From Bacteroidia bacterium (lineage in GTDB: Bacteria; Bacteroidota; Bacteroidia; NS11-12g; UBA955): DNA of 64,000 bases. The translations under genes and the position numbers were made by a program. The stretch lies in the NCBI GenBank assembly GCA_023653095.1, contig JAMNXP010000003.1:39503-103502 (forward strand), in the 5' to 3' direction. Below, in pieces: positions 1 to 19,232 of the stretch. The first letter of the stretch is position 1. Each line of letters starts with the position of its first letter. The notes below the pieces were generated by a model, which saw nothing but the letters and a program-made list of their open reading frames with translations, had not been told where the DNA came from and ran no database searches.

Positions 1-843
1 TAAGAATATTGATTCTGCCTCTTGTCTCGTAAAATCTTCATAATCTCCAGGGTGATGTGTCTTCGACGCTAATACATGAGTAGCACTACATACACTATCT
101 ATCCAAGCATATGAACTTTGGGACATACTATTTAGCCAACCGAATGTTGATTCCAAAGGTTTTTGGTTTTTATTCTTTTTAAGATTTCGGTTTAATGCAT
201 CAAGTACATTTCTACAATGTGAAATACACTTATTATAATCTTTTTTATTGAAATAGTCTTCAGCTGTATCAAACTCTTTTTTTATTTTTTGATATTCATC
301 TGTTAATTGATTGTGCGTTTTCGGTATTTCAATAAGACGTATATTATTATAGCCTAAGCTTAGCATTAGGGACTCAACCCAAGTTGATTTGGGTATTTCA
401 ATTTCAATTTGAGAGTCTTGGTTTTGAAGATAATTGGATGACCACAATGTTACATCTGAATTTAAGACTATCCTATTCTTAAGTGCAATTAAAAATTTCA
501 TTTTGATCGTAAATCTCAAACTTGAATGACGTAATTTTTCAATTTGACTGATTACATCCTTAGTTAAATTAAATTTTAAATCTATTCTAAATTTTGAATC
601 ATCAAAATAAGAGTACCCTATATTCTTATTAAATTGAGAACATAACATTTGATTTTCGCCAAATAACAAAGTCGATTCAGAACCCAGAAAATCAATTGAC
701 ATATTTGCCTGTGGAAGTCGAAATTTAACATTAACTGGAATAGTTAAATAAGAATTCAATGCATCCGATGATGCAATAATTTCTTGTTCCTTAACTTCTA
801 TATCTTGAACTTTAGATATTATTGTAAATGAACCTTTACCCAT
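1..843 (-). CDS. hypothetical protein, 3' end cut by window edge (>=281 aa); C-terminal part faintly DUF4145-like (helical, Cys/Arg motif)
   Basis: Absent from the supplied ORF track because it is open at the window edge. I translated the reverse strand from the ATG at 843-841: MGKGSFTIISKVQDIEVKEQEIIASSDALNSYLTIPVNVKFRLPQANMSIDFLG...DYFNKKDYNKCISHCRNVLDALNRNLKK...THHPGDYEDFTRQEAESIFL. That gives 281 sense codons with no stop down to nt 1. The ATG overlaps the TAA of the upstream rhuM-like gene (TAATG). The region is very AT-rich. I recognise no family with confidence. Confidence 0.6.
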   Translation of the reverse strand, partial: MGKGSFTIISKVQDIEVKEQEIIASSDALNSYLTIPVNVKFRLPQANMSIDFLGSESTLLFGENQMLCSQFNKNIGYSYFDDSKFRIDLKFNLTKDVISQIEKLRHSSLRFTIKMKFLIALKNRIVLNSDVTLWSSNYLQNQDSQIEIEIPKSTWVESLMLSLGYNNIRLIEIPKTHNQLTDEYQKIKKEFDTAEDYFNKKDYNKCISHCRNVLDALNRNLKKNKNQKPLESTFGWLNSMSQSSYAWIDSVCSATHVLASKTHHPGDYEDFTRQEAESIFL

Positions 844-1886
844 TATTTTTTCTTCTTATTTGCAGGCGAATTGACATTTGATTCCTTCATTTTTTTGACT
901 TCGTTCTCAAAATCACTTACAAAGTTTTGATCTTGAGATACTCTAAATTTTTCAAACTCTTTCTCCGCTAATCTCATAGCCACATCATGACTTACTTTAC
1001 CTGCATCCCTGAGAATGTTATACTCATTAAATTGAAGGAAAGCATCTAAACGTGTAACCCAATCTGCCATTTTCATCGGGATCTGTCTTTCGGCTTGAAG
1101 TTCAGCAAAATCGAGGTACATGGTAACGATTCGTTCCAGTTCTTTGATTTCCTTTTCCTGTAGGTAATTTTTGGCTGTACCAATATCGGTTTTCAAGATT
1201 TTCCCGTTAGGGGCATTCTTCCATGTGGTTAAGCCCATGTTGGGCTGTGAGGCATCGGCTCGGTCTGCAATCAATTCGGCTGCTGTTTTGCCGGTAATGG
1301 CCCAATGCAGCTTGTTCTGAACCGTTTTAAAGAACTTTTGGGTTATTTCTGCATCCTTGTTATAGTCGATACTGCACTGCTCGTATATGTCGGTTATTTT
1401 GAGGTAGAAACGCCTTTCACTGGCTCTTATCTCCCGGATACGTTCCAAGAGTTCGTCAAAGTAGTCCTTGCCAAAGCGTTTTCCCTGTTTAAGCCTTTCA
1501 TCGTCCAGCACAAACCCCTTGATTATGAACTCCCTAAGGGTTTTAGTAGCCCAAATACGGAACTGGGTAGCCTGATGGCTGTTTACCCTGTAGCCCACGG
1601 CTATTATGGCATCCAGATTGTAAAACTCCACATTCCGCTTTACCATTCGGGTGCCTTCCTGCTGAACTGTTTCCAAAATGGAAATAGTTGCCTTTTCGAC
1701 TAATTCGCCTGTTTGGTAAATATTACTCAGGTGTTTGTTGATAGCAGGAACTTCCACACCAAAGAGTTCTGCCATCCGCTTTTGAGTAAGCCAAAAGGTT
1801 TCGTCATTAAAAATCACCTCAATTTTCACATCACCGGTGGGGGTGTTGTAAAAAATGATGTCGTTATGTTGTGGTGTATCACTCAT
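843..1886 (-). CDS. rhuM: RhuM-family protein (type I R-M-linked 'virulence protein RhuM')
   Basis: 347 aa. The N-terminal pattern IIFYNTPTGDVKIEVIFNDETFWLTQKRMAELFGV...NKHLSNIYQTGEL, then YNLDAIIAVGYRVNSHQATQFRIWATKTLREFIIKGFVLDDERLK, is the characteristic RhuM-family signature as I remember it. It lies 25 nt downstream of hsdR on the same strand. Confidence 0.8.
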   Translation of the reverse strand: MSDTPQHNDIIFYNTPTGDVKIEVIFNDETFWLTQKRMAELFGVEVPAINKHLSNIYQTGELVEKATISILETVQQEGTRMVKRNVEFYNLDAIIAVGYRVNSHQATQFRIWATKTLREFIIKGFVLDDERLKQGKRFGKDYFDELLERIREIRASERRFYLKITDIYEQCSIDYNKDAEITQKFFKTVQNKLHWAITGKTAAELIADRADASQPNMGLTTWKNAPNGKILKTDIGTAKNYLQEKEIKELERIVTMYLDFAELQAERQIPMKMADWVTRLDAFLQFNEYNILRDAGKVSHDVAMRLAEKEFEKFRVSQDQNFVSDFENEVKKMKESNVNSPANKKKK

Positions 1887-1911
1887 TTTAAATTACTTAT
1901 TTTTTTAACGC

Positions 1912-4900
1912 TTACTTATTGGCATTGAACTTCATAAAATCTCTCTGCATTATCTGGAACATGGTTCCGGCAAAGAAATCCCTGAACTCCTTGTTATCAT
2001 TATACTCCTTGAATACCTCGAAATTGGTCTCGATGTGGTCTATTAGTTTCCGCTTTAGTACATCTTCAAATGTAATCCTGGCATTTTGGGTGTCTGAGTG
2101 CTGGAAAGCATTAACAAACTCACTATCATTGGCTACATCTTGCATTAAATCTTCTGTCATTTTCTTCACCTTATCTTCATTGGTAAAGGCAGTACCAAAT
2201 CTGTCGTTAAATGCTTTTACAATGTTAGACAAATACTCCATTTCAGGCTCGGCAACTCCACCTCTCATCTCGGTGGGGATAGGTTTTAATTCATCACCCT
2301 GCTCAAGTGCAATATTGGTGGTTGCCTCTAATTGATATCGAAGGTTCTCCATGTCTATGTTATCCAAAATGCCTTGTGCTAAATCTTCCTCCTTCTGACG
2401 GCCTAACTTATTCTGTAAATGGTTTAAGAATAGGTATAGCCTTTCCAGATATGGGTTGATAAAAGGAACTATTTGAGCAAGGAAAACATAGAGACGAACA
2501 AACGTTTTGCATTTGGCACGGAAATCTTCTTGCTGTTCTTCGTTCAAGTGGCTTCTGAAAACTTCGGCAGCGGCATCCAAAATGCTGTGTAACTGATCAA
2601 CCGGAACATTGGCAATTAGGCGTTGTGAAAACTCCTGCACTTGTTCGGGTGTATAAACCTGAAAAGCATCTAAAGCCGATTGCAGGTCGAATAGTTTATT
2701 AGGGTCTGTTGCCTCACCCAAAATCGTGGTTTCGTAGAATGGGTCGAAAGACTTTTTGATGTCTTCTGCCTTGTTTGCAAAGTCTAATACGAATGTATCT
2801 GTTTTACCAGCCGTGGTTCTGTTCAGTCTTGAAAGGGTTTGAACAGCATTTACACCTCCCAATTTCTTATCAACATACATTGTATGTAATAGTGGCTGGT
2901 CGAACCCTGTTTGATATTTGTTGGCAACAATCAGAAAGCGATACTCTGATTTCTTAAACTCATCTGGTATTGCTGAACTTGAAAAGCCATTCAATGAGGC
3001 TTCGGTTTGCCCGCCTATTTCACCTGAAAATGCAACAATAGCTTTGAAAGGGTTTCCCGTATCTGTAAGATATCTATCGAATGCTTTTTTATACTTAACT
3101 GCATTTTTACGGCTGCTGGTAACCAGCATCGCTTTTGCCAAACCATTTATTTTTTTTCGCTTAATCACCGAATCCATGAAGTGTTCAATCATGATGGCAG
3201 TTTTCTTCTCAATAGCCAGGTCATGGCTTTCTACATAGATGCGTAGTTTCTTTTGTGCCTTTACTTTATCGAACAGTGGATCATCTTCAATGCGTTTGTA
3301 TAACCCATAAAAACTTTGGTAGGTAGTATAATTTTCCAGCACATCCCGAATGAAGTTTTCTTCAATGGCTTGCTTCATTGAGTATAAATGAAACGCCCTG
3401 AATTTTTCTTTACCGTTATCGTTAAACTTCTCACCAAACAATTCCAGTGTTTTGTTTTTAGGAGTGGCAGTAAAGGCGAAGTAGCTGGCATTGGTCAGCA
3501 TCTTCCTACCTTTTACAATATCTACCACCAAATCTTCAGAAGTAAGTTCATCATACTGGTCTTTGTCCACAAAAATGTAATCATCACCATCCACTTGTAC
3601 TTTTTCAAAATCTTTGGCCAGGGTTTCATTGAGCTTACCAGCAGTATTACCACTTTGGCTACTATGTGCTTCATCAATGATGACAGCAAACTTGTTGCCC
3701 GGCAACTCTCCAATTTCATTAACGATGTAGGGAAACTTCTGAATAGTCGTAATAATTATCTTCTTGCCTTCTTCTAAGGCAGTTTTTAGCTGCTTACTAC
3801 CTTCGGTAATGGCTTCTACAACTCCTTTTACCTGCTCAAATTGTTTGATGTTATTCCGTATCTGAGCATCCAGTACTTTGCGGTCGGTAACTACAATGAC
3901 CGTATCAAATACAGTATTGGTATTTGAGTTATCAAATAAACCTACTAACTGGTGAGCCAGCCAGCTGATTGAGTTACTCTTACCTGAACCAGCGGAATGT
4001 TGAATAAGATATCTGCGGCCAGCCCCATTTAGTTTTGCATTTTGCAACAGACTGTTTACTGCTAACAACTGGTGATAACGAGGAAATATGAGTTTCTTGA
4101 CTTTCTCCTTTTTGATTTTACCATCAGGCAATATCTTCTCTACTTCCTCTTCAAACAACTGCACATAATTCTGAATGATATTGGTTATGCTGTCTTTAGT
4201 CAATATTTCCTTCCACAAGTAGTCAGTTTTAATGCCCGATGAATTGGGGGGATTACCTGCTCCATTATTATGTCCTTTATTGAAGGGCAGAAAATATGTG
4301 CTGCCATTTTTTAAGTGAGTGGTCATCCAAACCTGCTCTGTATCTACGGCAAAGTGCACCATGCATCTGCCGAGGCGAAACAGTTCTTCTTTGCTATCTC
4401 TGGTTGTTTTGTATTGTTTGATAGCATCTTTTACATTCTGCTTGGTAAGCTCATTTTTTAATTCAAAAGTGATGATGGGTAAGCCATTGATGAAAATAAC
4501 CATATCGAGGCTATTTTCATTTTGTGTGCTGTAATGCACCTGTCGGATTACAGAGAATATATTCTTATTGTAAAGTTCAGTGTCTTGCTGGTTGAGGTTA
4601 GAAACGGGTTTATCATAAAACAATTTCAGCTTTATATTATTGTCAGTAATTCCTTTACGCAAAACCTCGATAATGCCCAGCAATTTGATTTGACTATTGA
4701 GGCGGTACAACACTTTAATTCTGTAATTGCTGCCATGGATGGCCTGCAATTTTTGAACTGCTTTCTCCTGTGTTGCTTCAAAAAAACCGAAAAGCATTTC
4801 TTCATCGACACACTCTACACGATTGTACTGGGCATGATGGCGAAGTTGAAATGAATTACCGGCAATCGTATCGCAGAGATACGCTGCAATAAGCGCTTCT

Positions 4901-4929
4901 AATCCTTTTTCTGATGTATCTGTTTTCAT
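1912..4929 (-). CDS. hsdR: type I restriction endonuclease subunit R
   Basis: 1005 aa. PD-(D/E)xK-like segment DMVIFINGLPIITFELKN. SF2 helicase motifs HSAGSGKSNS (Walker A), VIIDEAHSSQSG (DEAH), FAFTATP and QTGFDQP. Same strand and operon as hsdM/hsdS. Confidence 0.9.
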   Translation of the reverse strand: MKTDTSEKGLEALIAAYLCDTIAGNSFQLRHHAQYNRVECVDEEMLFGFFEATQEKAVQKLQAIHGSNYRIKVLYRLNSQIKLLGIIEVLRKGITDNNIKLKLFYDKPVSNLNQQDTELYNKNIFSVIRQVHYSTQNENSLDMVIFINGLPIITFELKNELTKQNVKDAIKQYKTTRDSKEELFRLGRCMVHFAVDTEQVWMTTHLKNGSTYFLPFNKGHNNGAGNPPNSSGIKTDYLWKEILTKDSITNIIQNYVQLFEEEVEKILPDGKIKKEKVKKLIFPRYHQLLAVNSLLQNAKLNGAGRRYLIQHSAGSGKSNSISWLAHQLVGLFDNSNTNTVFDTVIVVTDRKVLDAQIRNNIKQFEQVKGVVEAITEGSKQLKTALEEGKKIIITTIQKFPYIVNEIGELPGNKFAVIIDEAHSSQSGNTAGKLNETLAKDFEKVQVDGDDYIFVDKDQYDELTSEDLVVDIVKGRKMLTNASYFAFTATPKNKTLELFGEKFNDNGKEKFRAFHLYSMKQAIEENFIRDVLENYTTYQSFYGLYKRIEDDPLFDKVKAQKKLRIYVESHDLAIEKKTAIMIEHFMDSVIKRKKINGLAKAMLVTSSRKNAVKYKKAFDRYLTDTGNPFKAIVAFSGEIGGQTEASLNGFSSSAIPDEFKKSEYRFLIVANKYQTGFDQPLLHTMYVDKKLGGVNAVQTLSRLNRTTAGKTDTFVLDFANKAEDIKKSFDPFYETTILGEATDPNKLFDLQSALDAFQVYTPEQVQEFSQRLIANVPVDQLHSILDAAAEVFRSHLNEEQQEDFRAKCKTFVRLYVFLAQIVPFINPYLERLYLFLNHLQNKLGRQKEEDLAQGILDNIDMENLRYQLEATTNIALEQGDELKPIPTEMRGGVAEPEMEYLSNIVKAFNDRFGTAFTNEDKVKKMTEDLMQDVANDSEFVNAFQHSDTQNARITFEDVLKRKLIDHIETNFEVFKEYNDNKEFRDFFAGTMFQIMQRDFMKFNANK

Positions 4930-4932
4930 TAC

Positions 4933-7680
4933 TTAAAAGTCATATTTTGTTTTACGCATCTCAAAGGCAATAACACCACCTTCCATAATGTCTTTTACTT
5001 GCAATTTGATTTCATCCTTATCAATTGAACCACTACCAATAATCTCACCTGCGGATTTATCAGAATTATGGTCAAATGTTAGGATTAACTCTGCATCACC
5101 ATTTACTGCAATATTTGCATTATGACTACTGAATATGAGCTGTCGCTTATGTTTAGCCGAAACAATATTCTCGGTTATCTGGTGAATAACTTTGTTATCA
5201 AGATCATCCTCAGGCTGGTCAATAATTAAGGGGCCAAATTCCTGATTTAACAGTATCGTTAGGATTGAACCAGCTTGCTGACCATAAGAGGCATCTTCAA
5301 ACGGAATTTTATTTGAAGGGTCTTTACAATAAAGAAGTTTTAAATCATAAGTAGGAAGTTCCAACGCAAAGTCAATTATGTCTGATGTATTCAGACTTTC
5401 ATTAATTCTTTCAAAATCAGTTTCAAGAAGTGAGGCATTTTGCAAGCCATACTCTGAAATTATGTTTTCGATTTTTAGATTTTCAGTTTGAGCCTTGTAA
5501 ATTGAGAACCACAACTTCAACAGTTCTTTATAGGTATTTTCTCCCTTTAAGAGAGTCTGGAAAAACGATTGTGTCCTTGCTGGCTGGCCTTTACTTCCAG
5601 TAACTTTAGCTAAGAAATCTTTAATAATATGCTCTATATCATCTAACGGTGTTAACTCAATTTCAAGAGAACCTTCGCTTTTACTGCATATTTCAGATAC
5701 TGCACTGTTAATTAAAGTGTGCAAACTTATATTTAATTGATGCCTCTGGTAAAACAGCTTCTGCAAATTCCGTCTAACACCCTTTTCAGATTCCAAAGTT
5801 TCAAGTATCCTGTTCCTATCCTCAATCAAAACAGCCAAACGTTTTCTGAGTTCTTCAAGTTCCTTTATTATCTGCTCAAACTTTGTCTGTCTGCCTTTTG
5901 CTTCAACATACTCAGCATCATGTATACCATGCAAATCAGTTAATAGGGTCTTATCAGCAACTAAATCTGAAGAACTTGTCTTGCTTCGTGCATCCTCCAA
6001 TGCGGCTTTTATATTTTTAACTATCTCGTCATGGCTGGCAGCAAACTTTTTAATCTCCGCTATATTCTTCACATTATTTGCATCAAATTGTAACCCGTTG
6101 AAATTTCCATTTGTAAGGATATTACCTATCTGATTAAAGAGTGCTGCAATCTGAGCTTCAGAAGATTTTATTATCAATTTTTCGTTAGCAACAAGACTAT
6201 TGTTTTTGATTATTGTTTGGTCGCCTGAAGGAACATCAGACAATTGCTCATTCAAGGAATTAATTTGTTCCTCAATTGATTCAATTTGTGTCCTTAAATC
6301 TTCTGACGATTTTAGATTAGAAAGATAGGTTTCATAAGAAGCAGCTACTTCCTTAATCCTGTTGCCATTTTCGTTGATCTGTCTTTTTATTGATTCAACA
6401 CCACTATTTACAGCATTCTCAATGATCCTTGTAAGTTGTACCGTCTTGTCTTTCTCATGTTTACTAAGTTCTTTTTGTGCAAATGAATCTGCACGAATAA
6501 TTGAAACAACATTTTGACTATTGGTTGGCTGCCAGTCTTCATTGCCAATCTTTATTTTGTAAGAATTAATTGACCGCCTGATGATATGGGTGGTACCAGT
6601 TTTAATAATTACAACTTCAACGCTACCCGTGCCCAGTGTATTACTAATAAACGTCTCAAGGTCTGCTTTCTTCTCCTCATTACTGTCTTTACCCAAAGCC
6701 CATGAAATATATTGGAGCAAAGAAGACTTTCCTGTTCCTCTACCTCCAATACACACATTAAACTGAGGGTTAAATTTAATTTCTAAGTCTTTCAAGAAGC
6801 TGCTGCCCGATATTATCACTTCACTAATTCTGGTGGATGGTAACTTTGGCTCTTCCTGTAAAATTCTGGACTTTTTTGCCAGGCAGGCTTGCCGTAAACC
6901 TTCTGCAGTTGGTGTTGACCATTTTACCCAGGTGGCAGAAAAACCTAAATGTTCAAATGTATCTGTTCTATTGTCTGATGTTTGAAAAAAACCAATTGAT
7001 CTGTTTCCATAAGCAGGAACTTTACCTTCAATGATATTATTCCATCCTTCCTTCTTTTTGTGCTTTACATAAAGTTCCCTGTCTAAATAGCCACCCACGA
7101 AAATCCCTTTGGCATATTCGTTATAAAAGTTTTCACGGAAAATTGAATCACTTCCACCGTCTTTGATATTCGGAAACACTATAAAGCGACCTTTGAGGTC
7201 TTTTACACCGTTTAGAGCATCATAGACATCATTGATGCTTTTAAACGACAGCCTATTAGTTTGCCCTGTTTTTGACTCTGATTTACTTGTGTAACCTGAA
7301 ATTCCAAGTGCGGTATAGATTTTTATTCTCGTTTCATCATCTATTACTAAATCAGCGTCAAAAATCAAAAGAGCCTGACAGGGAACATCAAGCGTCAATT
7401 CCATTCCCGGGAAGACAACTATTCGTTCATGCTCAGGTATTGGATGTCCATGTACGTCCTTATCATTATTGCTAGCTTCTTTGATGTAATTGTAAAAACA
7501 CAAATCGTGGTGATCTGTAATTGCTACCGCATCAATTCTTTTTTCTCTACAAGCCTTAATAAACCGCTCTGAATAAGCAATTCTTTCGGCATCAGAAACA
7601 TAAGCCTGCCCAGAGAACTGAAGGTCTCTCGGGGTGTGAACCTGAAAGTCACATTTATAATATCTTGCACCTTTGTCCAT
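4933..7680 (-). CDS. PHP-domain phosphoesterase fused to an SMC/Rad50-like ABC ATPase (TrlF/Ppl-like)
   Basis: 915 aa. PHP motifs at the N-terminus: CDFQVHTPRD, AVAITDHHD, FPGMELT. Walker A GGRGTGKSSLL (aa ~312-321). A long helical, coiled-coil-like middle (aa ~420-760). Signature-like SYGQQAG, Walker B LIIDQPEDDLD (aa ~818-828) and H-loop FSSHNANI. The start abuts the hsdS stop (7680/7681) and the stop is 3 nt from the hsdR start. Confidence 0.75.
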   Translation of the reverse strand: MDKGARYYKCDFQVHTPRDLQFSGQAYVSDAERIAYSERFIKACREKRIDAVAITDHHDLCFYNYIKEASNNDKDVHGHPIPEHERIVVFPGMELTLDVPCQALLIFDADLVIDDETRIKIYTALGISGYTSKSESKTGQTNRLSFKSINDVYDALNGVKDLKGRFIVFPNIKDGGSDSIFRENFYNEYAKGIFVGGYLDRELYVKHKKKEGWNNIIEGKVPAYGNRSIGFFQTSDNRTDTFEHLGFSATWVKWSTPTAEGLRQACLAKKSRILQEEPKLPSTRISEVIISGSSFLKDLEIKFNPQFNVCIGGRGTGKSSLLQYISWALGKDSNEEKKADLETFISNTLGTGSVEVVIIKTGTTHIIRRSINSYKIKIGNEDWQPTNSQNVVSIIRADSFAQKELSKHEKDKTVQLTRIIENAVNSGVESIKRQINENGNRIKEVAASYETYLSNLKSSEDLRTQIESIEEQINSLNEQLSDVPSGDQTIIKNNSLVANEKLIIKSSEAQIAALFNQIGNILTNGNFNGLQFDANNVKNIAEIKKFAASHDEIVKNIKAALEDARSKTSSSDLVADKTLLTDLHGIHDAEYVEAKGRQTKFEQIIKELEELRKRLAVLIEDRNRILETLESEKGVRRNLQKLFYQRHQLNISLHTLINSAVSEICSKSEGSLEIELTPLDDIEHIIKDFLAKVTGSKGQPARTQSFFQTLLKGENTYKELLKLWFSIYKAQTENLKIENIISEYGLQNASLLETDFERINESLNTSDIIDFALELPTYDLKLLYCKDPSNKIPFEDASYGQQAGSILTILLNQEFGPLIIDQPEDDLDNKVIHQITENIVSAKHKRQLIFSSHNANIAVNGDAELILTFDHNSDKSAGEIIGSGSIDKDEIKLQVKDIMEGGVIAFEMRKTKYDF

Positions 7681-8985
7681 TTAAACTGTTTTTCTTTTTC
7701 CCATCACCGCTTCGGCTATCATCGCTTCTTTATGTTCTCTGATTAATTCAATTTCACGTTCGGCTTTAGCTATTGCTGTGTCTATGGAGGCGGTTTCGGT
7801 TCTTATGTGTGATACAATTATTTTTTGTTCATCGATTGGTGGAATTGTCAAAAATATTTTTCGAAAATCACCTTTACCTATGTTTGGCTGACCAGTCTCT
7901 CGAACATGATAATTGATTTGTTTTTGAATAAATGGGGAACTCAATTGTAAATACAAATAATCCTTGTCGAGTTCTTCTGGCTCTAATGGGATGAAATTAC
8001 CAACACGGTAATTTTGCAATAGAATTTCATCCTTAATATCTGCACGGATAATCTTTCCAATTGTCCCACCTGTAAGAGCCATTAAAATGTCACCTTCATT
8101 TATAATTATGTCACGAAACTCATCTATTCTACTTTCATCAATTGTATTAGCTTTCGTCAAGTCCAAATAACCATTGGGATTGAGCTGAGTTATCTTAACA
8201 ATTTTGACACCTTCATCTGTAAAGTCATAATCTCTAAACTGAAATCCATGCCTTAGAAAAACGTATTTGTTGAACTTTTCAATTTTATAGTGAATGGGAA
8301 ACTTTTCAGCAAAAGGAATTTCAGAGTTTTTAAATGATACTTTATCATTCAAGCCATTTGTTATGATTTTGTAAATCATTGAAAACTTCTGCTCCTTCAA
8401 CAGCTCTATAAACCGTTGTTTCTTTTCAATAAAGCGGTTTACCTTTTCCTCTTGTGCTTTGATGTATTGCACAATTTCGTCTTGCTCGGTTTTGGGCGGC
8501 ACTAAGGCAAAAATGCTGAAAAACTTATCGGAGTATAGTCGTAAACGGCTGTCAATAATACCAGTGCTGTGTCTTCGGAACTCAGCTTTAAATAATGCGG
8601 TAGTAAACAAATAGCCAAAATATTCCGGGTTATTGTCACCCTTCACACGATACACACAATAGGCAGGGCTGGTAATTCCGTTGTGTGGCGAAATGCCCAT
8701 ACTCCCATTCCACGCCAGCATAATGTTTACTACCAAATCACCCGTTTCTACCATCTTATAACCTACAAGGCTTTCGGCATTGGTTAAATGCTCATCATCA
8801 CTTTCCAGACTTTCTCTCTTGAGGGTAACTCCAGTATAATGTGAAACAGAAAGTAGTTCTTCACTACCTGTTTCACTTCGGTTATCTACCTCCTGAAACA
8901 GATTTTTAATGCGAAGCACCTGCCAGTGTGAGGGGAAATCACCCAGCCAAGCTATCTTTTTTTTGTTTACTGCCGCTGCTGTCAT
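7681..8985 (-). CDS. hsdS: type I restriction-modification specificity subunit S
   Basis: 434 aa with two target-recognition halves. Each half is followed by a conserved helical spacer (..EQDEIVQYIKAQEEKVNRFIEKKQRFIELLKEQK.. and ..DEQKIIVSHIRTETASIDTAIAKAEREIELIREHKEAMI..), which is typical of HsdS. Confidence 0.85.
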   Translation of the reverse strand: MTAAAVNKKKIAWLGDFPSHWQVLRIKNLFQEVDNRSETGSEELLSVSHYTGVTLKRESLESDDEHLTNAESLVGYKMVETGDLVVNIMLAWNGSMGISPHNGITSPAYCVYRVKGDNNPEYFGYLFTTALFKAEFRRHSTGIIDSRLRLYSDKFFSIFALVPPKTEQDEIVQYIKAQEEKVNRFIEKKQRFIELLKEQKFSMIYKIITNGLNDKVSFKNSEIPFAEKFPIHYKIEKFNKYVFLRHGFQFRDYDFTDEGVKIVKITQLNPNGYLDLTKANTIDESRIDEFRDIIINEGDILMALTGGTIGKIIRADIKDEILLQNYRVGNFIPLEPEELDKDYLYLQLSSPFIQKQINYHVRETGQPNIGKGDFRKIFLTIPPIDEQKIIVSHIRTETASIDTAIAKAEREIELIREHKEAMIAEAVMGKRKTV

Positions 8986-8990
8986 AACTT

Positions 8991-9704
8991 CTAAATTGTA
9001 TCAACGGGATCGTCTTGATTTCGGTGAATAGGATTGTTATTAACATTAAAGCATTCTTTTGATGCCTTAAATTGTTTTACTAATGCAGCTCTTACCTCTG
9101 GCATTGCATTGAATACATTGTACCACACACTCCAGAATCCTGAATCACCTGCCTGACCAATAATTCCGTTTAAAGTTGCTTGTCGTGGCACACTTGTATA
9201 TTCGGCATACCTTTCTAAAGCCTGACTAATTGCCTTTAATCTGTATTCAAATCTAGTATCAACACCACCAGAACTGTTTACTTTTTTGTCTAAACCATAC
9301 AAGGCTATTGTTGCATTAGCTTTAACTGGCTGATTCGCTGTTAATTTAGAAGAAGGCACCAAAACTCCCGATAGGTGCTCAAAAACAATTAAAGTATTTT
9401 GTTTATGAGGCCAGTAATAGTTGTGCAGTTTTATATCTAGATTACCCTTAGTGCTATTACAATAGTGACAAATTAATAACAAATTGCTCCATTCATTTCG
9501 AAGGTTTTCATACTTATTTTTATTTCCATAACACTCTTTCGGTTTAATATGCTCAACAGCTGGAACATTCAAAATTGGCATTTCACAAAAATGGCAGTAA
9601 CGACAGGTCTGCCTTATCAAGTATGGCTTTGCCTCACCCCAGTGATCGAATTGAATTTTTTTTCCTGCTTTATTTACAGGTTGTTTTTTAGTAATTGGCC
9701 TCAT
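8991..9704 (-). CDS. HNH endonuclease, PtuB/TIGR02646-like
   Basis: 237 aa. Cys-rich HNH core CRYCHFCE...VEHIKPK...NLLLICHYCNSTKGN. Its start overlaps the stop of the upstream ATPase by 4 nt (ATGA). Confidence 0.7.
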   Translation of the reverse strand: MRPITKKQPVNKAGKKIQFDHWGEAKPYLIRQTCRYCHFCEMPILNVPAVEHIKPKECYGNKNKYENLRNEWSNLLLICHYCNSTKGNLDIKLHNYYWPHKQNTLIVFEHLSGVLVPSSKLTANQPVKANATIALYGLDKKVNSSGGVDTRFEYRLKAISQALERYAEYTSVPRQATLNGIIGQAGDSGFWSVWYNVFNAMPEVRAALVKQFKASKECFNVNNNPIHRNQDDPVDTI

Positions 9705-11029
9705 TTCTCATTAACCTTTTTTACTTCCAAATATGCTTTATAAACAGGATCTGTTGTGTCCTGAACAAGTATTCCATCGACTATTTGTTTTAGTACTAAA
9801 TAGTCGTTTTGGCCAATCTCACCAGGTTTCTTTGCTAATTGCTCAAGAACACGTAAAGCTATCATATGCCTGTCTTGAAAATCATCGCTATTAATATTCT
9901 TAACTCCCATAATATCAGTAGCGACTTTGTTAAGTGGTTGATCAACAGGGTTAATATCAGGATGCAATTCGTCAAGATTAATTAATTCTTCCTGTTTCAA
10001 ACTCTGAACAATAAAAGGTGAATGAGTTGTTACTACAAACTGCATTTTAGGGAAAGTCGCTTTCAAATCTTTAATAACATGCCGCTGCCATGTGGGATGC
10101 AAATGCATGTCTAATTCATCAATCAAAACCACGCCAGGGCTTTTCACAACTGCATCATAACCCAACTTTCCATTCAACATGATGCAGCGGTAAGCAATTT
10201 CTGCCACCATGTTCAACATAGCCTTCATACCATCGCTTAGCATAGAGGCAATCTTTCTTTCAACCGGCTGCCCGTCATTAAAATCTACCAATACTTCAAA
10301 CTCATCATACTTTGAGTTGTATTCGATTTCTTTTATGTAGGGTATGGCGGTTGTAATGGCATCATACATAGCTTGTATTGTGCCCTCAAATTCTACTTCA
10401 TCTTTTACCTTCTTTTCGTAACTGTATAGCCATTCATACACACCTGTGAAATCAACACTATCTCCTAGTGCAGTGTAATACCCTTTCTCCAAACGAGACA
10501 TCCTACGCCACTTTTTATCAACCCTTCTTACCTGTGCATTGGTTCGATTAATATAGAAATTAGCTAATACTGGATATAGCACATTCTTTTTAGTTGAATG
10601 ATTGTCAAACAAATAATTAGCATAGCGAATAATGTCAGCAGAATGCTCTTTTTTATGAGTAGTGGCATTACTTGGGAGATAGTGTCTTTCCCAACGAAAC
10701 GGTTCTGGTATTTCATCAACTACATCGTTATGATACCATTTAGCGGCAACAATTAAAGACGGATTTTCTTTGTTGGGCAGATAGTCTTTTCTTTCGGGGT
10801 AATATTTTACAAACCGTTCTCCTTTCTTAAACTGCCTTCTGTAAATATAGTTTGCAGGCAATGTAGGCATAGATTGTAAGAAAGCACCTAAACCCACTTG
10901 CAATGCATTGAGCAAGGTTGATTTACCAAGTCCATTATTACCTATGGCCACAGTAAACCTCTCCTTGAACTCGAAAGACTTTTCTTCAAAGCCCTTAAAG
11001 TTTTTTAAGTGTATGTGTGTTATCAGCAT
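9701..11029 (-). CDS. ABC-type AAA ATPase, PtuA-like (AAA_15/21-like)
   Basis: 442 aa. N-terminal LKNFKGF, Walker A GNNGLGKSTLLNAL, Walker B VVLIDELDMHLHP and VVTTHSPFIV. One nt separates it from the hsdM stop. Confidence 0.7.
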   Translation of the reverse strand: MLITHIHLKNFKGFEEKSFEFKERFTVAIGNNGLGKSTLLNALQVGLGAFLQSMPTLPANYIYRRQFKKGERFVKYYPERKDYLPNKENPSLIVAAKWYHNDVVDEIPEPFRWERHYLPSNATTHKKEHSADIIRYANYLFDNHSTKKNVLYPVLANFYINRTNAQVRRVDKKWRRMSRLEKGYYTALGDSVDFTGVYEWLYSYEKKVKDEVEFEGTIQAMYDAITTAIPYIKEIEYNSKYDEFEVLVDFNDGQPVERKIASMLSDGMKAMLNMVAEIAYRCIMLNGKLGYDAVVKSPGVVLIDELDMHLHPTWQRHVIKDLKATFPKMQFVVTTHSPFIVQSLKQEELINLDELHPDINPVDQPLNKVATDIMGVKNINSDDFQDRHMIALRVLEQLAKKPGEIGQNDYLVLKQIVDGILVQDTTDPVYKAYLEVKKVNEK

Positions 11030-11030
11030 C

Positions 11031-12815
11031 TTATTCGATTATTTCTTTTAATAGCCCCTCTGTTTCTTCCTCAATAGCCAGAATATCTTTTGCGATTTCA
11101 TCTAAAGGTCTTGGGGGCTGGTGTTTATAGAAGTATTTAGCAAAATTGATTTCATAACCCACCTTGTTATCCTTTTCATCCCACCATGCATCAGGAGCAA
11201 AAGGCAATACTTCTCTTTCAAAAAATTCCTGAATGTCTTCTTTTAAAGGAATGTTCTCTGTGTCCTTCAATTTGCTATCTGCCTTTGGCTTTCCTTTACT
11301 TGCATAAATGATATTGCCGTTTTCATCTCTTTCCGGACGGTTCACATTAATTTGTGTGTAGCCAAAATCCTCGTTATCGAAAATTTTACTGTATTCATTT
11401 TCCTCAAAGTCGAGGTACATTTTTTCAATTACCGGTATATGACTTTCTGAAAATTCAACCCTCTTTTTGCCCAAAGGCTTCCGCATTTTAGTGTAGAACT
11501 TTTCAGATGTAGCATTAATCAGCTGAACCTTTCCTATACGGTGTTTTGCCTTTCTATTGGTGATTATGAAAATGTAAGTGGGAATACCCGTATTGTAGAA
11601 CATATCATTAGGCAATGCTATGATGGCTTCCAATAAATCATTTGAAATGATATGCTTTCTGATTTCGCTTTCGCCTTGTCCTGCATCACCAGTAAATAAG
11701 GCTGAACCATTGTGAACTGAAGCAATACGACTGCCGAGTTCGGTATCCTTCATTTTACTGAGCATGTGTAATACAAACATCAACTGACCATCATTAACCC
11801 GACTGGTTACAGCTTCATTCTTATAGCAGCCATTCAGGATAAAACGCTTATCAATGATCTTTCCTTTTTCGCCCACTCCTAGGGCTTTCTTATCGGGAGC
11901 CCACGTTTTGCCATAAGGCGGGTTTGTGAGCATGAAATCGAACTTCAAATCAGAAGGAAAACCGTATGTACTTAATGTACTGCCATAGGCAATTTTGTTT
12001 GGGTCTTCCCCTTTTATCAGCATATCGCTTTTGCAGGTAGCGTATATAAAGGGAGTGCTTTCCTGACCGTATAAATGAACTGTTGCGTTACTTCTAATTG
12101 GACCTTCAGGATTCAACATGAAGTTCTTTGCGATTGTGAGCATACCACCAGAACCAACGCAAGGGTCGTAAAGCAAATATGTACCTTGTTTGATTTGATC
12201 TTTTACGGGAACAAAAACAAGATGCGTCATTAAATCGATGATTTCCCTTGGTGTAAAGTGTTCTCCGGCTTCTTCGTTATTTTCTTCATTAAAACGCCTT
12301 ACTAAATCTTCATAAACATAACCCATAGCTAATGGGGGTAGCTTATCTGGATGTAGTTCAACTTTGGGAGAACAAAACTTTTCGATTAAAGAGAATAGAA
12401 TTTGAGCTTCTTCAAGTGTTTCTATTTCATTTCTGAACTTAAACTTATTGATAATGTCCTGTACATTATCTGAAAAGCCGTTGAGGTAGTTTTCAAAATT
12501 AGAACGCAAGTTTTTTGGATCTTGCATTAACTTCTTTAATGTAAATGGCGAGGTGTTATAAAAGGCCAGTCCTGAACCATGCTTGCTGTTCGTTAACAAT
12601 GAATCAAGATTTTGCAGCTTGTCCTTATACTCCGAAAATGTTTTAAGAACCTGGTCTTTCGTTGGCTCTAATAGTAAGTCTAATCTGCGAATAACAATCA
12701 TTGGCAGAATAACATCTTTGTATTTACCCTTCTGATAGGTATTAACTAAAACATCATCAGCAACCGTCCAGAGAAAGTTAATAATTGGTTGAAGTGATTG
12801 TGTATTTAAAGCCAT
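11031..12815 (-). CDS. hsdM: type I R-M N6-adenine DNA methyltransferase subunit M
   Basis: 594 aa. SAM-binding motif DPCVGSGGML and catalytic motif LTNPPYGKTW (NPPY). Confidence 0.9.
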   Translation of the reverse strand: MALNTQSLQPIINFLWTVADDVLVNTYQKGKYKDVILPMIVIRRLDLLLEPTKDQVLKTFSEYKDKLQNLDSLLTNSKHGSGLAFYNTSPFTLKKLMQDPKNLRSNFENYLNGFSDNVQDIINKFKFRNEIETLEEAQILFSLIEKFCSPKVELHPDKLPPLAMGYVYEDLVRRFNEENNEEAGEHFTPREIIDLMTHLVFVPVKDQIKQGTYLLYDPCVGSGGMLTIAKNFMLNPEGPIRSNATVHLYGQESTPFIYATCKSDMLIKGEDPNKIAYGSTLSTYGFPSDLKFDFMLTNPPYGKTWAPDKKALGVGEKGKIIDKRFILNGCYKNEAVTSRVNDGQLMFVLHMLSKMKDTELGSRIASVHNGSALFTGDAGQGESEIRKHIISNDLLEAIIALPNDMFYNTGIPTYIFIITNRKAKHRIGKVQLINATSEKFYTKMRKPLGKKRVEFSESHIPVIEKMYLDFEENEYSKIFDNEDFGYTQINVNRPERDENGNIIYASKGKPKADSKLKDTENIPLKEDIQEFFEREVLPFAPDAWWDEKDNKVGYEINFAKYFYKHQPPRPLDEIAKDILAIEEETEGLLKEIIE

Positions 12816-12818
12816 GAG

Positions 12819-13130
12819 TTATTTATTTCTTTTGTTTCTTTTATTCGATTTCAATGTTTCTTGAGCAGCATCCATTGCCTTTAGTGCAACATCTTCATCC
12901 TTGACCACTTCATACAACTGATCGGCTAACCAAAGCACAAGCAATTCGTTGGAATCTGCTTTCAGTATTTCAGCCAATACCGGAATCTGATCCCTTTTAA
13001 GTAGTCTGCTCCCTTTTTCAATTTTACTCAGTTGGGCCGTATCCATTTCAAGAAATGGTGCTACCTGCCGCAAATACAAGTTTTGCTTCTCTCTGAGCTC
13101 CCTGACCCTCTCACCAAATTGACTTTTCAT
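12819..13130 (-). CDS. XRE-family HTH transcriptional regulator (candidate controller of the R-M operon)
   Basis: 103 aa. FGERVRELREKQNLYLRQVAPFLEMDTAQLSKIEKGSR fits the HTH_3/XRE pattern. It is the first gene of the operon, 3 nt upstream of hsdM. Confidence 0.75.
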   Translation of the reverse strand: MKSQFGERVRELREKQNLYLRQVAPFLEMDTAQLSKIEKGSRLLKRDQIPVLAEILKADSNELLVLWLADQLYEVVKDEDVALKAMDAAQETLKSNKRNKRNK

Positions 13131-13151
13131 CGTTTTAATATTGACTTGTCA

Positions 13152-13167
13152 TATATTGGCAAATATA
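13152..13167 (-). promoter_or_regulatory. candidate promoter -7 box plus overlapping palindromic operator for the XRE/R-M operon
   Basis: The minus strand reads ..ATTGCTAAAAAGCTAATTTTTTTGGTATATTTGCCAATATATGAC..N..ATG. TATATTTG (13167-13160) matches the Bacteroidota -7 consensus TAnnTTTG, and its 3' end is ~29 nt from the ATG. A TTG lies ~21 nt upstream of it. The perfect inverted repeat TATATT-N4-AATATA (13152-13167) overlaps the box. Confidence 0.35.
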
Positions 13168-13255
13168 CCAAAAAAATTAGCTTTTTAGCAATAATTTTGT
13201 CCATTTTAGACTTCTAAATAATTTTTGATCACACAAAAAGTAATTCCACAGTAAA

Positions 13256-13284
13256 TCCCACGGAACTTTCTGCATTCCATGGGA
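13256..13284 (-). terminator. candidate hairpin terminator/insulator between island maintenance genes and the defence operon
   Basis: tcccacggaa-ctttctgca-ttccatggga forms a 10-bp stem with one mismatch and a 9-nt loop. On the minus strand it is followed by TTTACTG. It lies 15 nt downstream of the stop at 13299. The T-tract is weak. Confidence 0.35.
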
Positions 13285-13298
13285 TTCTTGTGGTAAAA

Positions 13299-14045
13299 TC
13301 AACTGAAAAAATCGGAATCTCCGAGATTATCTAGGAATTCTATGGAATCATCATCGTATGCGTAGGAAACCATGAATTCATCTTCATCCTCGTCATCATC
13401 TACGTTGTCATTTGCGGTATCGAGGGCTTTGTTAAACATGTCCATGAGCGATTTGAAATAATAATGCCCTAGATGAGAATCGGTATCAATACCATAGACT
13501 GCCATGTGCTCTTGGACTTGCTCCCAAAGTTTGCTTAGCGTCTTGTAGCTGCGTTTGAAGGCTGCCAGATCCATTTCAATTTCTTCGTAATCAAACTCAG
13601 ACAGTAACGCACGTTCTTTCTCAATCCATACTTTTAGGCCATGGTTGATTTTGCGTTCTTCAATTTGCTGTTGACGTGCAATGGCGTCCTTTTCCAAATG
13701 CTTCAGCTCTAACTCTCGCTTGCGGAGTTCAAGCTCTTTGTCCTGTTGTGCAAGCTTGCGCAATTCGAGCTCGTGCTCCAATTGCAATTTCTTCAAAGCG
13801 ATTTCACGCTCTAATCGGTTGAGGTCGTTGTGGTTTTCCATTTTATTATAGTTTTTAGTTTGATGATTGGGCATGTTGGCTTTGGCAATAAGGTCAATGG
13901 GCAAGGAATTGCCTCCATTGCCTGATTGGCCATTAAGCCAACGAAATACCTGGCTCTTGCTTACATTGAGCTCAGAAGCAATTTGCCTTATGCTGTAGCC
14001 CTTCTTTTGTAGCTCTTGGGCTTGGTGTATTAAATTTTGATTCAT
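13299..14045 (-). CDS. HTH domain / coiled-coil protein of the integrative element
   Basis: 248 aa. N-terminal HTH (KGYSIRQIASELNVSKSQVFRWLNG), a Glu/Lys/Leu-rich coiled coil with near-repeats (LELRKLAQQDKELELRKRELELKHLEK) and an acidic tail. Confidence 0.5.
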   Translation of the reverse strand: MNQNLIHQAQELQKKGYSIRQIASELNVSKSQVFRWLNGQSGNGGNSLPIDLIAKANMPNHQTKNYNKMENHNDLNRLEREIALKKLQLEHELELRKLAQQDKELELRKRELELKHLEKDAIARQQQIEERKINHGLKVWIEKERALLSEFDYEEIEMDLAAFKRSYKTLSKLWEQVQEHMAVYGIDTDSHLGHYYFKSLMDMFNKALDTANDNVDDDEDEDEFMVSYAYDDDSIEFLDNLGDSDFFS

Positions 14046-14071
14046 GGTTATTAATTGGTTTACTCATATAC

Positions 14072-15466
14072 TCAATTGCTCATTGGCTCATCGTCACAAT
14101 TCTGAGCACCTTTTTTCTGATACTTTCCATGACCAATGCGTTCAAAGGCATCACTAGACAAATACCTGGTGAGGGTTGCTAATGATATTTCTAAACCCTC
14201 CCCGATTTCATTGGCTTCTTTCCTGGTAAAAGTATCGGGGAGCATTTCAATCATAAACTGGAGTTTTCGGTATTTGATAATATCGTTATTCACCCCCGGC
14301 ATTTCTGCCATGTGTTTAGCACTGTTGCTTATTAAATGCTTTGCTAAACTCATTGCCACATTGAAATCGGACTGGTTTAATTGAATGGAGTGTGAGGGAT
14401 TTACTCTTTGATCAATAAACAATCTCAGACATGACAACACCATTGTAATGCGATAGCAAATCAGTCCTGTGCGATGCAAGGATGCCAAAATTCGATCACC
14501 TGTATCATTAAAATAAGATTCTAACAATGCCGCAAACTTGTTTTGAAATTCTACCTGTAATGACTTCTCAAGATGACACTCTAAAGGTGTCCCAAGCCTG
14601 TTTAATAACTCGTAAAGGATAAATATCTGCTGTCCCAATTGCATGAATTCCTGTCCCGGTATTGTCCCACGGCGCTCAAACACATCCCTGAATTTTGGGA
14701 CACTACGCATGGAATAGTACATGAAACGACTAAATAATCCATTCTCTGCATCAGGAATCAATCGTTTCAACTGTCCTTGTGTCCCGGTAAGAAAAACTGT
14801 GAGCTTGGGCGATTCCAAAGAAATATATTCCTTGTTTGTCTTGCGCTGAATCTCCACCGTTTCATGATGAAACGCACACCGTAAAACATCACTAAAATTT
14901 CCCCAATCTTGCGATAATGAATTACTCAGCGTATCGGCCTCTGTGCTAAATAATATTCCAGCCCCGTTATTCTCAGATAACGTATGAAGAAATGAGCTGG
15001 CGCTATTATTGGCAGGAATCAATAACATTTTACAAGGTGGCGGTGGCACAAATCCTTCCTGAGTATCCTTTTCCTTTCTCTTGGCACTCATTTTCAATTC
15101 ATATTCCTGCTGTAGAATTTTAGATTCATCTCGCTTGGCTTTATGAATCGGCGCAGCTAAATACCGGACAAAATTCAGAATGCCTTTTCCTGCACCTGCG
15201 GGCGCATCAATAAAGGCGAATAAATTTGGGTACACTATGCGATTATCATAAATGCCATAAACATTGGGCAAGCATCCCGATAGTATGGTAATCGCTCCTA
15301 ATAGAATTACATCACGCTCTTGTTTATTAGATGCTACAATAAAAAGAGGCTGTAAACACTCAGGAATCATTTCAAATACGGAATCATCGAAATTCAATTC
15401 CGTATCTTCAGCTGCACCAGGAACCCAAAAAATTTCTTCTGTTTGTGGTTCTTGCTTTGAGTTCAT
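14072..15466 (-). CDS. DUF3987-like protein (P-loop, integrative-element replication/maintenance)
   Basis: 464 aa with the P-loop-like motif IDAPAGAGKGIL. Its position after int/xis genes is typical of DUF3987 proteins of Bacteroidota integrative elements. This assignment is from memory. It has a 4-nt overlap with the upstream HTH gene. Confidence 0.55.
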   Translation of the reverse strand: MNSKQEPQTEEIFWVPGAAEDTELNFDDSVFEMIPECLQPLFIVASNKQERDVILLGAITILSGCLPNVYGIYDNRIVYPNLFAFIDAPAGAGKGILNFVRYLAAPIHKAKRDESKILQQEYELKMSAKRKEKDTQEGFVPPPPCKMLLIPANNSASSFLHTLSENNGAGILFSTEADTLSNSLSQDWGNFSDVLRCAFHHETVEIQRKTNKEYISLESPKLTVFLTGTQGQLKRLIPDAENGLFSRFMYYSMRSVPKFRDVFERRGTIPGQEFMQLGQQIFILYELLNRLGTPLECHLEKSLQVEFQNKFAALLESYFNDTGDRILASLHRTGLICYRITMVLSCLRLFIDQRVNPSHSIQLNQSDFNVAMSLAKHLISNSAKHMAEMPGVNNDIIKYRKLQFMIEMLPDTFTRKEANEIGEGLEISLATLTRYLSSDAFERIGHGKYQKKGAQNCDDEPMSN

Positions 15467-15813: not shown

Positions 15814-15839
15814 ATTTGAAACATTTACTCACCATGCAT

Positions 15840-17210: not shown

Positions 17211-17212
17211 AA

Positions 17213-19193: not shown

Positions 19194-19232
19194 ATTGCAA
19201 AAATACAAGGAAAATATTACTAACTTAGCCGC

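Follow-up and report, generated by a model that had tools for sequence, protein, structure and literature searches.

Defence genes embedded in type I restriction-modification loci

Defence genes embedded within the loci of other defence systems, including type I restriction-modification (R-M), BREX, DISARM and Hma, have been surveyed under the heading of 'guilt-by-embedding', and the phage-defence-candidate (PDC) models of PADLOC go back to proteins that stood inside BREX, DISARM or type I R-M loci (Payne, Hughes, Fineran and Jackson, bioRxiv 10.1101/2024.01.29.577857). The subject of this article is an operon of nine genes at the beginning of a 64,000-nucleotide (nt) stretch of a Bacteroidia genome (GenBank assembly GCA_023653095.1, contig JAMNXP010000003.1, positions 39,503 to 103,502), hereafter the window, in which type I R-M genes are interspersed with a Septu pair and a TrlF-family gene and followed by a RhuM-family gene and a gene of an uncharacterised family. 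The embedded-defence architecture of this locus is already published, and the locus is a further example of it, doubly filled and carried on a mobile element. As in the systems surveyed by Payne and co-workers, which comprise Septu, Ppl-type ABC ATPases, GmrSD-like proteins and unknowns, co-oriented foreign genes stand between the core genes of the host system. Unlike those systems, the window operon fills both junctions between core genes as well as the 3' end and has an XRE-family regulator at its head, and base-level breakpoints between near-identical backbones, which are given here, do not figure in that survey. In keeping with what defines an embedded system, TrlF and RhuM are also found elsewhere or in other slots; the autonomy of Septu outside its host system is taken from the literature alone, where Septu is reported as an autonomous stand-alone pair and about 0.7% of Septu systems as embedded in Hma (bioRxiv 10.1101/2024.01.29.577857; PMC12819146). 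Given that such architectures are known (bioRxiv 10.1101/2024.01.29.577857; PMC3710099), the contrast that an earlier note on this DNA drew between a functionally integrated operon and a random island is a false choice.

A comparable layout is found in the RptR island of enteropathogenic Escherichia coli (rptR-hsdM-hsdS-darT-darG-hsdR), whose promoter 5' of the first gene is reported to be under RptR control (Zhang et al., NAR 2025, PMC12255303). Both loci begin with a small regulator, hold a second system between hsdS and hsdR, and have a palindromic operator (in the window, a candidate one) over the promoter. RptR, however, is a novel four-helix protein with a 6-base-pair (bp) TAGCTA palindrome, whereas the window has an XRE helix-turn-helix (HTH) protein and a 5+5 bp dyad, and host phylum and cassettes differ as well. 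Extra nuclease or ATPase genes between hsd genes, adding a second layer of protection, are likewise known from TgvAB in the type I cluster of Vibrio cholerae VPI-2, from PrrC in EcoprrI and from the Campylobacter Rlo genes; TgvAB protects 10-100-fold better in its native cluster than alone (PMC11411939). PrrC is unlike the window modules in being almost exclusive, and functionally tied, to type I loci, whereas TrlF and Septu occur mostly elsewhere. Multilevel defence loci that combine R-M with a PrrC-like ABC ATPase and RhuM or DOC toxins (Anantharaman et al. 2013, PMC3710099) share with the window the association of R-M, an ABC-ATPase effector and RhuM, directed at different targets, but the ABC ATPases of the window carry HNH (in trans) and PHP domains rather than HEPN. 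Finally, the TrlF family takes its name from the Photorhabdus temperature-restriction locus trlR-trlF-trlG (bioRxiv 10.1101/2020.06.02.129163), and Ppl is a single-gene anti-phage system (Gao et al. 2020); like both, the window protein has a PHP domain and an ABC-type ATPase fused in a single chain of about 900 amino acids (aa), and unlike them it falls under the Ppl cutoff and has no TrlG or TrlR partner.

A type I operon as a probable scaffold for exchangeable cassettes

The reading that best accommodates the observations below is that the type I genes would form a scaffold with exchangeable slots at the hsdM-hsdS (M-S) junction, the hsdS-hsdR (S-R) junction and the 3' end, each accepting self-contained cassettes; we give this reading a probability of roughly 0.7. 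A scan of the window for open reading frames (ORFs) finds nine on the minus strand, running from 13130 to beyond nt 1 and none of them broken, with junctions, in gene order, of 3, 1, -4 (ATGA), 5, 0, 3 and 25 nt, followed by a TAATG overlap; map and spacings are identical to those in the earlier note. Such tight spacing is ordinary for bacterial operons, and it is the gene content and order that are notable. The gene assignments of that note (a type I R-M system with a Septu pair and a Ppl/TrlF-class PHP-ATPase between its genes, then RhuM) agree throughout with profile searches, and the hidden Markov model searches that it had called for (Pfam, PADLOC, NCBIfam) confirmed the names of eight genes, the ninth being without a significant match. 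The expected catalytic motifs are all readable in the translations. From the first gene to the last, the operon consists of:

12819..13130, minus strand: XRE-family HTH regulator, 103 aa, the operon's first gene (HTH_31, E 1.8e-10)
11031..12815, minus strand: hsdM, type I N6-adenine methyltransferase subunit, 594 aa (Pfam and PADLOC)
9701..11029, minus strand: ptuA, Septu ABC-type ATPase, 442 aa (PADLOC PDLC00267)
8991..9704, minus strand: ptuB, Septu HNH nuclease, 237 aa, ATGA overlap with ptuA (PADLOC PDLC00315)
7681..8985, minus strand: hsdS, specificity subunit, 434 aa, two target-recognition domains (Specificity_I)
4933..7680, minus strand: trlF, N-terminal PHP phosphoesterase domain and ABC/SMC-like ATPase with coiled-coil insert, 915 aa, in the hsdS-hsdR slot (NF045780)
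1912..4929, minus strand: hsdR, restriction/translocase subunit, 1005 aa (HSDR_N, SWI2_SNF2, ResIII, T1R_D3)
843..1886, minus strand: rhuM, RhuM-family, 347 aa (PF13310, PDC-S05)
1..843, minus strand: ninth gene, 281 codons inside the window with no stop reached at nt 1, about 298 aa when complete, TAATG overlap with rhuM

Judged by their profiles and motifs, all three subunits HsdM, HsdS and HsdR are those of a type I R-M system. HsdM matches N6_Mtase (PF02384, 5.4e-54), HsdM_N (PF12161, 2.6e-23) and PADLOC MTase_I (PDLC03029, 4.9e-235) and has both NPPYG and the S-adenosylmethionine (AdoMet) motif. HsdS matches PADLOC Specificity_I (PDLC03105, 2e-83) over residues 10-430 of 434, and Methylase_S at 7.7e-17. 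HsdR has HSDR_N (2.8e-20), SWI2_SNF2 (2.1e-28), T1R_D3-like (2.1e-13) and ResIII domains by Pfam, together with the D..ELK nuclease motif, GSGKS and DEAH; against TIGR00348 it scores 207.7 bits (3.3e-61), under the 284.55-bit cutoff. Such subunits would be expected to methylate host DNA as HsdM2S and to restrict unmethylated DNA as HsdR2M2S.

How variable is the remainder of the operon when the type I genes are held nearly constant? A search with HsdM yielded 160 loci, in which ORFs were called and labelled with profiles grown from the window proteins; slots were counted in the 91 loci where M, S and R are all present, an embedded gene being one of at least 100 aa. Embedded genes are present in 71 of these 91 complete operons, both slots being filled in 26 and neither in 20, and they are overwhelmingly co-oriented with the operon (143/160). 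The embedded proteins number 184 and belong to 110 families, of which 79 have a single member; ten annotated representatives comprise Gabija GajA, HEC-09, three GmrSD-like proteins (HEC-05/06), DarT, PDC-S02 (DUF1016/YhcG), PD-Lambda-3_B/Ymh, an SMC/LmuB-like ATPase and HATPase_c_4. Backbones with HsdM identity of at least 87% are laid out as follows (L numbers are our handles for individual loci; MAG, metagenome-assembled genome):

Window: M-S slot, PtuA/PtuB; S-R slot, TrlF; past hsdR, RhuM and the ninth gene
L162/L001 (Sphingobacteriia MAG) and L002 (Sediminibacterium): M-S slot, PtuA with a different PtuB; S-R slot, TrlF; then RhuM
L161 (Algoriphagus boritolerans): M-S slot, PtuA and PtuB as in L162/L001; S-R slot, 967-aa SMC/LmuB-like ATPase; then a 219-aa non-RhuM ORF
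L081: M-S slot, HEC-09 NYN protein; S-R slot, 968-aa ATPase; the contig stops at hsdR
L083: M-S slot empty; S-R slot, Gabija GajA and a 592-aa partner; then other non-RhuM ORFs
L164 and L165: M-S slot empty; S-R slot, three other genes; then other non-RhuM ORFs
L003: M-S slot, 279-aa gene; S-R slot, TrlF; then a 1992-aa non-RhuM ORF
L086: M-S slot empty; S-R slot, TrlF; then a 117-aa non-RhuM ORF

The comparison of closest relatives thus upholds the earlier suspicion that the inserts are swappable cassettes, the slots holding differing genes on near-identical backbones. RhuM itself is not bound to the 3' end: three loci (L006, L106 and L111) have it in the M-S slot and three others (L160, L169 and L174) in the S-R slot. 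The operon would accordingly be pictured as a mobile multi-system defence operon in which a complete type I R-M system is the scaffold and cassettes are exchanged at the M-S junction, the S-R junction and the 3' end. As a separate observation, the largest embedded family is HATPase_c_4, with nine members, seven of them in the hsdS-hsdR slot (e.g. L093, L100, L113, L170); this domain is also part of Photorhabdus TrlG, and in the loci examined the embedded HATPase_c_4 proteins never stand beside TrlF.

Breakpoints at base resolution

The exchanges can be located by comparing the DNA of the window with that of L161, which breaks the operon into alternating segments:

9972-13167: promoter, XRE gene, hsdM and the first ~350 codons of ptuA, 98.1% identical to L161
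9012-9971: 3' end of ptuA and ptuB, no L161 match
8387-9011: first part of hsdS, 93.3% identical to L161
7788-8386: hsdS target-recognition domain, no L161 match
7690-7787: end of hsdS, 88.8% identical to L161
4931-7689: trlF to within a few bases, no L161 match
1824-4930: hsdR to the first ~60 nt of rhuM, 98.5% identical to L161
below 1824: remaining rhuM and the ninth gene, no L161 match

HsdS is 87-100% identical to L161 over its first half and has had its second target-recognition domain replaced. Because hsdM and hsdS are adjacent in L086, the ptuAB insert maps exactly to the hsdM-hsdS junction. The modules also differ in GC content at third codon positions (GC3), which is 0.36 for the N-terminal part of PtuA, 0.22 for its C-terminal part, 0.28 for PtuB, 0.31 for TrlF, 0.41 for HsdR, 0.46 for RhuM and 0.21 for the ninth gene. 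A search for integron- or transposon-like repeats flanking the cassettes gave only short repeats at chance level, which favours homologous over site-specific exchange; the simplest mechanism would be cassette replacement via homologous recombination in the conserved flanking hsd genes. The hsdS of L161 (13838-15093) is called as two ORFs of 257 and 119 aa, and may be disrupted or phase-variable.

A natural chimera in the Septu pair

The window ptuA and ptuB have what a Septu system requires, namely a full-length ATPase and an adjacent, co-oriented HNH nuclease. PtuA matches PADLOC PDLC00267 at 3e-114 over residues 1-440, with Walker A, Walker B and signature motif in place, and PtuB, an HNH protein, matches PDLC00315 at 4.5e-58 over residues 1-228 (TIGR02646, 29.7 bits, under its 52.15-bit cutoff). 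Against the retron-type PtuA equivalog NF041760 the score is 179 versus a 500-bit cutoff, as expected for stand-alone Septu. PtuA and PtuB would be predicted to form an ATPase-HNH complex that nicks DNA when triggered.

One of the recombination breakpoints lies inside ptuA, near 9972 or about residue 350, where GC3 falls from 0.36 to 0.22-0.28. Residues 1-350 of PtuA are 93-100% identical to those of L161, L001 and L085, residues 361-442 only 17-27%, and PtuB is 30-35% identical to the PtuB proteins of these same loci, whose backbones are otherwise 98% identical. In published structures PtuA's C-terminal extension clasps the C-terminal domain of PtuB (PMC12819146). Since the C-terminal ~90 residues of PtuA and the whole of PtuB were swapped together, the exchanged unit corresponds to the interaction module, and the pair is a natural chimera.

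TrlF, a single-gene module

In the S-R slot, TrlF scores 473.8 bits against NCBIfam NF045780 (cutoff 350) over residues 3-913, and columns invariant across 27 TrlF homologues (PHP metal-site, Walker A, signature, Walker B and H-loop residues) are all kept. It is not a Ppl equivalog, a candidate identity ruled out by 180.1 bits against the cutoff of 1000 for NF042955; the match to PADLOC Ppl (1.2e-45) is confined to residues 242-909. No sequence relatives were found in the PDB.

Of the candidates scored, 2387 proteins belong to the family at E <= 1e-10, and contigs taken from one genome per species contain 405 matches. Neighbourhoods were inspected for the best 80 of these 405 loci, one per species and from at least 10 phyla. 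No neighbour family is conserved across these best 80 loci; type I-like genes lie within 10 kb in 15 of them, and TrlF stands between hsdS and hsdR in four only. The gene directly 5' of TrlF (32 loci) encodes ResIII in three cases and Methylase_S, SIR2 or TIR in two each, with single cases of BrxL, R.HinP1I, BsuBI/PstI, Eco57I, Shedu SduA, Vsr and NYN, and among plasmids, pMI3 has TrlF after a Mod-Res pair and pAt12D13a has it after another restriction endonuclease. From this distribution TrlF emerges as a promiscuous single-gene module, often 3' of other defence systems, rather than a dedicated HsdMS partner, and the same figures (15 of 80 near type I-like genes, four embedded) rule it out as an obligate, PrrC-like partner of type I enzymes. 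The TrlG partner (AlbA_2 with HATPase_c_4) was found neither beside any of the 80 relatives nor in the window, and with TrlR equally missing from both places the locus is not an operon of the Photorhabdus trlR-trlF-trlG type. TrlF, a PHP phosphoesterase fused to an SMC-like ABC ATPase and akin to Ppl, most probably acts on nucleic acid unaided, binding and processing it.

RhuM and an uncharacterised neighbour

Past hsdR, RhuM is identified by PF13310 (7e-117, 389.6 bits versus a gathering score of 33.7) and PADLOC PDC-S05 (3.4e-158), and is a predicted toxin-type effector. Neither the ninth protein nor its closest homologue has a significant match in Pfam, PADLOC or NCBIfam, and 44 members of its family gave only weak matches to Pfam and PADLOC (best E 4e-4, DUF7014 in 4 of 44). 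A profile search retrieved 509 representative clusters. The close homologues form nine clusters, each of about 297-300 aa, and always follow RhuM or a RhuM remnant: in L241 a RhuM with 94% identity, both genes closing a different R-M-like operon; in L245 and L246 remnants of 77-104 aa; and in L243 a RhuM C-terminus at the contig end. Distant members (loci such as L327-L334) are found singly, surrounded by SIR2, Fic, HEPN/MNT, ABC-3C, DUF1016 and Mrr genes, and no member of the family was found in the other 240 loci. The L241 operon (2053-10903) comprises an XRE gene (66% identical), a 755-aa fusion of HSDR_N_2 and N6_Mtase, an S subunit and a 540-aa ABC ATPase, with a 450-aa protein bearing a FokI cleavage domain in the place of HsdR, then RhuM and the ninth-gene homologue.

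An AlphaFold2 model of the ninth protein reached a mean predicted local distance difference test (pLDDT) score of 86.5 with a deeper alignment, compared with 64.6 in the first model, and displays a beta-sandwich over residues 1-150 and a four-helix bundle over 183-297. R105, S153, W155, C210, R211, H263 and H264 are invariant in the family. Foldseek against PDB and BFVD returned only generic beta-sandwich matches with TM-scores of 0.2-0.3. The gene is a candidate defence gene of an uncharacterised family, and could be either a new defence protein or a partner of RhuM.

The XRE regulator and its promoter

The XRE gene, which also stands directly 5' of hsdM in seven related loci, is preceded by three features:

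13242..13267, minus strand: terminator-like hairpin with a 10-pair stem and T-rich tail, following the upstream HTH_7 gene and lying in the stretch from the stop codon at 13299 to the XRE promoter
13160..13167, minus strand: Bacteroidota-type -7 box TATATTTG (TAnnTTTG), 30 nt 5' of the XRE start codon, kept in relatives
13141..13152, minus strand: candidate XRE operator, dyad aTGAC-AA-GTCAA, between the -7 box and the start codon; relatives have TTGAC-AA-GTCAA

The hairpin marks the end of the preceding transcription unit and the start of the defence operon. The -7 box is the sole intergenic TAnnTTTG on the coding strand, and DNA homology with relatives starts at 13167; TATATTTG is kept in L161, L162, L175 and L241, and L184 has TTACATTTG. 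Promoter calls rest on this box and its conservation, because the full Bacteroidota pattern (TTTG-N17-23-TAnnTTTG) has no match in 1-13300, not even 5' of the XRE gene; a sigma-70 scan (31 found versus 41.8 expected) is uninformative for Bacteroidota. The dyad, for its part, is kept in L161, L162 and L184. In L175, L164 and L098 it reads TTGTC-AA-GACAA, with both arms altered, and there the recognition-helix region of the XRE protein also differs, while L241 has TGAC-TA-GTCA 3' of the same -7 box. The dedicated promoter and operator that had been placed 5' of the XRE gene thus gain from the comparison, both being kept in relatives and the arms of the dyad changing together; this co-variation of regulator and operator on both arms may be new.

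Lying as it does between the -7 box and the start codon, the candidate operator is predicted to overlap the transcription start when XRE is bound. An XRE dimer would in this way repress the promoter through the dyad and thereby restrain expression upon arrival in a new host, and XRE is likely an autorepressor or controller. All genes of the operon are probably co-transcribed from this one XRE-controlled promoter, and both repression by XRE and co-transcription gain support, by analogy, from the RptR-controlled type I/DarTG2 island. Type II C proteins usually precede the endonuclease gene only, delaying restriction relative to methylation. The window regulator resembles them as a small, first-encoded HTH protein with a GAC...GTC-type dyad at its own promoter and a weak match to PADLOC Control_protein (1.3e-5; that to capH, 2.8e-5, is weak as well), but differs in preceding the methyltransferase and every other gene rather than the endonuclease.

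Coupled modules, independent units or passengers?

Would modules so closely packed act independently of the enzyme that houses them? The earlier note held that they are integrated with HsdMS or use it as a sensor, and the broader proposition is that they are coupled to the type I enzyme, either through sensing of HsdMS or of methylation or as guards that fire on anti-restriction inhibition, like PrrC held latent by EcoprrI. Several observations speak for such coupling, and the first of them and the TgvAB precedent also weigh against a scaffold of purely self-contained cassettes. The order hsdS-trlF-hsdR is repeated in Bacteroidota relatives down to 49% TrlF identity, and recurs in L006, which belongs to a different type I family (hsdM 26% and hsdR 24% identical), so that its persistence could reflect more than hitch-hiking; TrlF is often directly 3' of restriction genes, which are of several types; the operon's genes abut or are coupled in translation, which makes stoichiometric co-expression plausible; and there are precedents in PrrC, almost exclusive to type I loci (bioRxiv 10.1101/2024.01.29.577857), in TgvAB, whose better performance in its cluster demonstrates that context effects can occur for embedded modules (PMC11411939), and in other ABC-ATPase systems that sense the anti-restriction protein Ocr (PMC12255303). 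The sensor proposal nevertheless fails to account for near-identical backbones that carry different cassettes or none, hsdM/hsdR backbones 98% identical to that of the window having a different gene in the place of trlF and others no insert. TrlF relatives are mostly away from type I genes (65 of 80 loci have no type I-like gene within 10 kb), SIR2, TIR, BrxL and Shedu are also found directly 5' of TrlF, and Septu is published as autonomous, with the small fraction in Hma noted above. The occurrence of 110 unrelated families in the same two slots is more easily reconciled with a permissive site of insertion than with a specific partnership. Coupling in general is therefore improbable. That at least one of the embedded modules (TrlF, PtuAB, or RhuM with the ninth gene) would be a guard, silent while HsdMSR is intact and firing on phage anti-restriction, is a tentative idea and rather unlikely, though were it true the operon would be a wired two-tier circuit and not a set of parallel systems. 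The distribution of the genes instead points to modules that would work independently of one another, as the scaffold reading has it.

A different objection concerns transcription. If this were an ordinary defence island whose tight packing is incidental, internal promoters would serve the modules and XRE would control only itself and hsdM. The earlier statement that there is no room for internal promoters holds for the intergenic DNA but not within the coding sequences, where six coding-strand TAnnTTTG matches (12501, 9255, 7856, 6961, 5729 and 2074) tell against a single promoter, one of them lying 176 nt 5' of trlF and another 188 nt 5' of rhuM; some modules may therefore have promoters of their own, which cassettes of different origin, as their GC3 indicates, could have brought with them. 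Backbones with 88-90% identical hsdM (L081, L083, L163, L165) moreover have no detectable XRE homologue 5' of hsdM. Yet the total of seven TAnnTTTG in 13.3 kb is about what chance would give in AT-rich DNA (by a hand estimate, the bare motif not having been shuffle-tested), and the full pattern is without a match inside the operon. Terminator-like hairpins are not enriched (13 versus 9.3 +/- 3.1 in shuffles), and those on the operon's coding strand all fall within coding sequences. Genes that are co-translated within an operon typically have junctions like these, from -4 to 5 nt with ATGA and TAATG overlaps, and the comparable RptR-hsdM-hsdS-DarTG-hsdR island of E. coli is reported to be run by RptR from a promoter 5' of its first gene (PMC12255303). 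An ordinary island is thus a little more doubtful still than coupling. It is far less likely, finally, that some inserts are decaying passengers with no current function: relatives do contain broken genes, namely the split hsdS of L161, a fragmented hsdR in L166 and the RhuM remnants of L245 and L246, but the nine window ORFs are full length with intact catalytic motifs, and each matches its family profile end to end.

A mobile element and its host

The operon adjoins genes of an integrative element, beyond which housekeeping genes begin:

13299..17779, minus strand: integrative-element backbone with HTH_7, DUF3987, excisionase-like HTH_17, tyrosine integrase and a second HTH_17, beside mnmE
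17829-19259: mnmE, a housekeeping gene, followed by the gene for formate-tetrahydrofolate ligase (FTHFS)

These adjoining genes and the step in GC content, from 0.35-0.42 across the element to 0.45-0.46 in mnmE and FTHFS, identify the operon as cargo of the integrative element, the other end of which lies past nt 1. The adjacency of DUF3987, XRE and hsdM is repeated in L001, L161, L162, L164, L175 and L184. Near-identical operon backbones occur in Cytophagales, in Chitinophagales and in the window lineage, yet the integrases are only 49% and the DUF3987 proteins only 34% identical, which implies that the operon was exchanged between diverged elements. The host formate-tetrahydrofolate ligase is 94% identical to that of one freshwater MAG and at most 82% to all else, unlike the operon DNA, which is 90-98% identical to Cytophagales and Chitinophagales genomes. 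The operon thus appears to move between Bacteroidota orders on an integrase/DUF3987 element; a megablast search for it on plasmids gave no match. On the evidence of its housekeeping genes and CHU_C proteins of the type IX secretion system, the host is an uncultured member of the Bacteroidota. The region 21069-28122, with a 1889-aa PKD/CHU_C type IX secretion substrate, a second CHU_C protein and an extracytoplasmic function (ECF) sigma factor, fits such a host. The called start of mnmE (TTG 19259) overlaps the divergent FTHFS start (ATG 19233) by 27 nt and is probably over-extended.

Significance

What, then, does this operon add to an architecture that is already described? The locus is valuable as an example and a resource, not as a concept, in that it displays, at base resolution, cassette exchange inside a type I operon moving between Bacteroidota orders. 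Three leads follow from it. In the natural Septu chimera, the joint exchange of the PtuA C-terminal extension and PtuB suggests selection on their interface, a point that may be new. The XRE protein and its operator could serve as a portable switch for Bacteroidota defence operons. Lastly, the uncharacterised family of about 300 aa is a reasonable choice for functional tests: its close members are linked to RhuM, a link that may also be new, and its distant members lie in defence islands.

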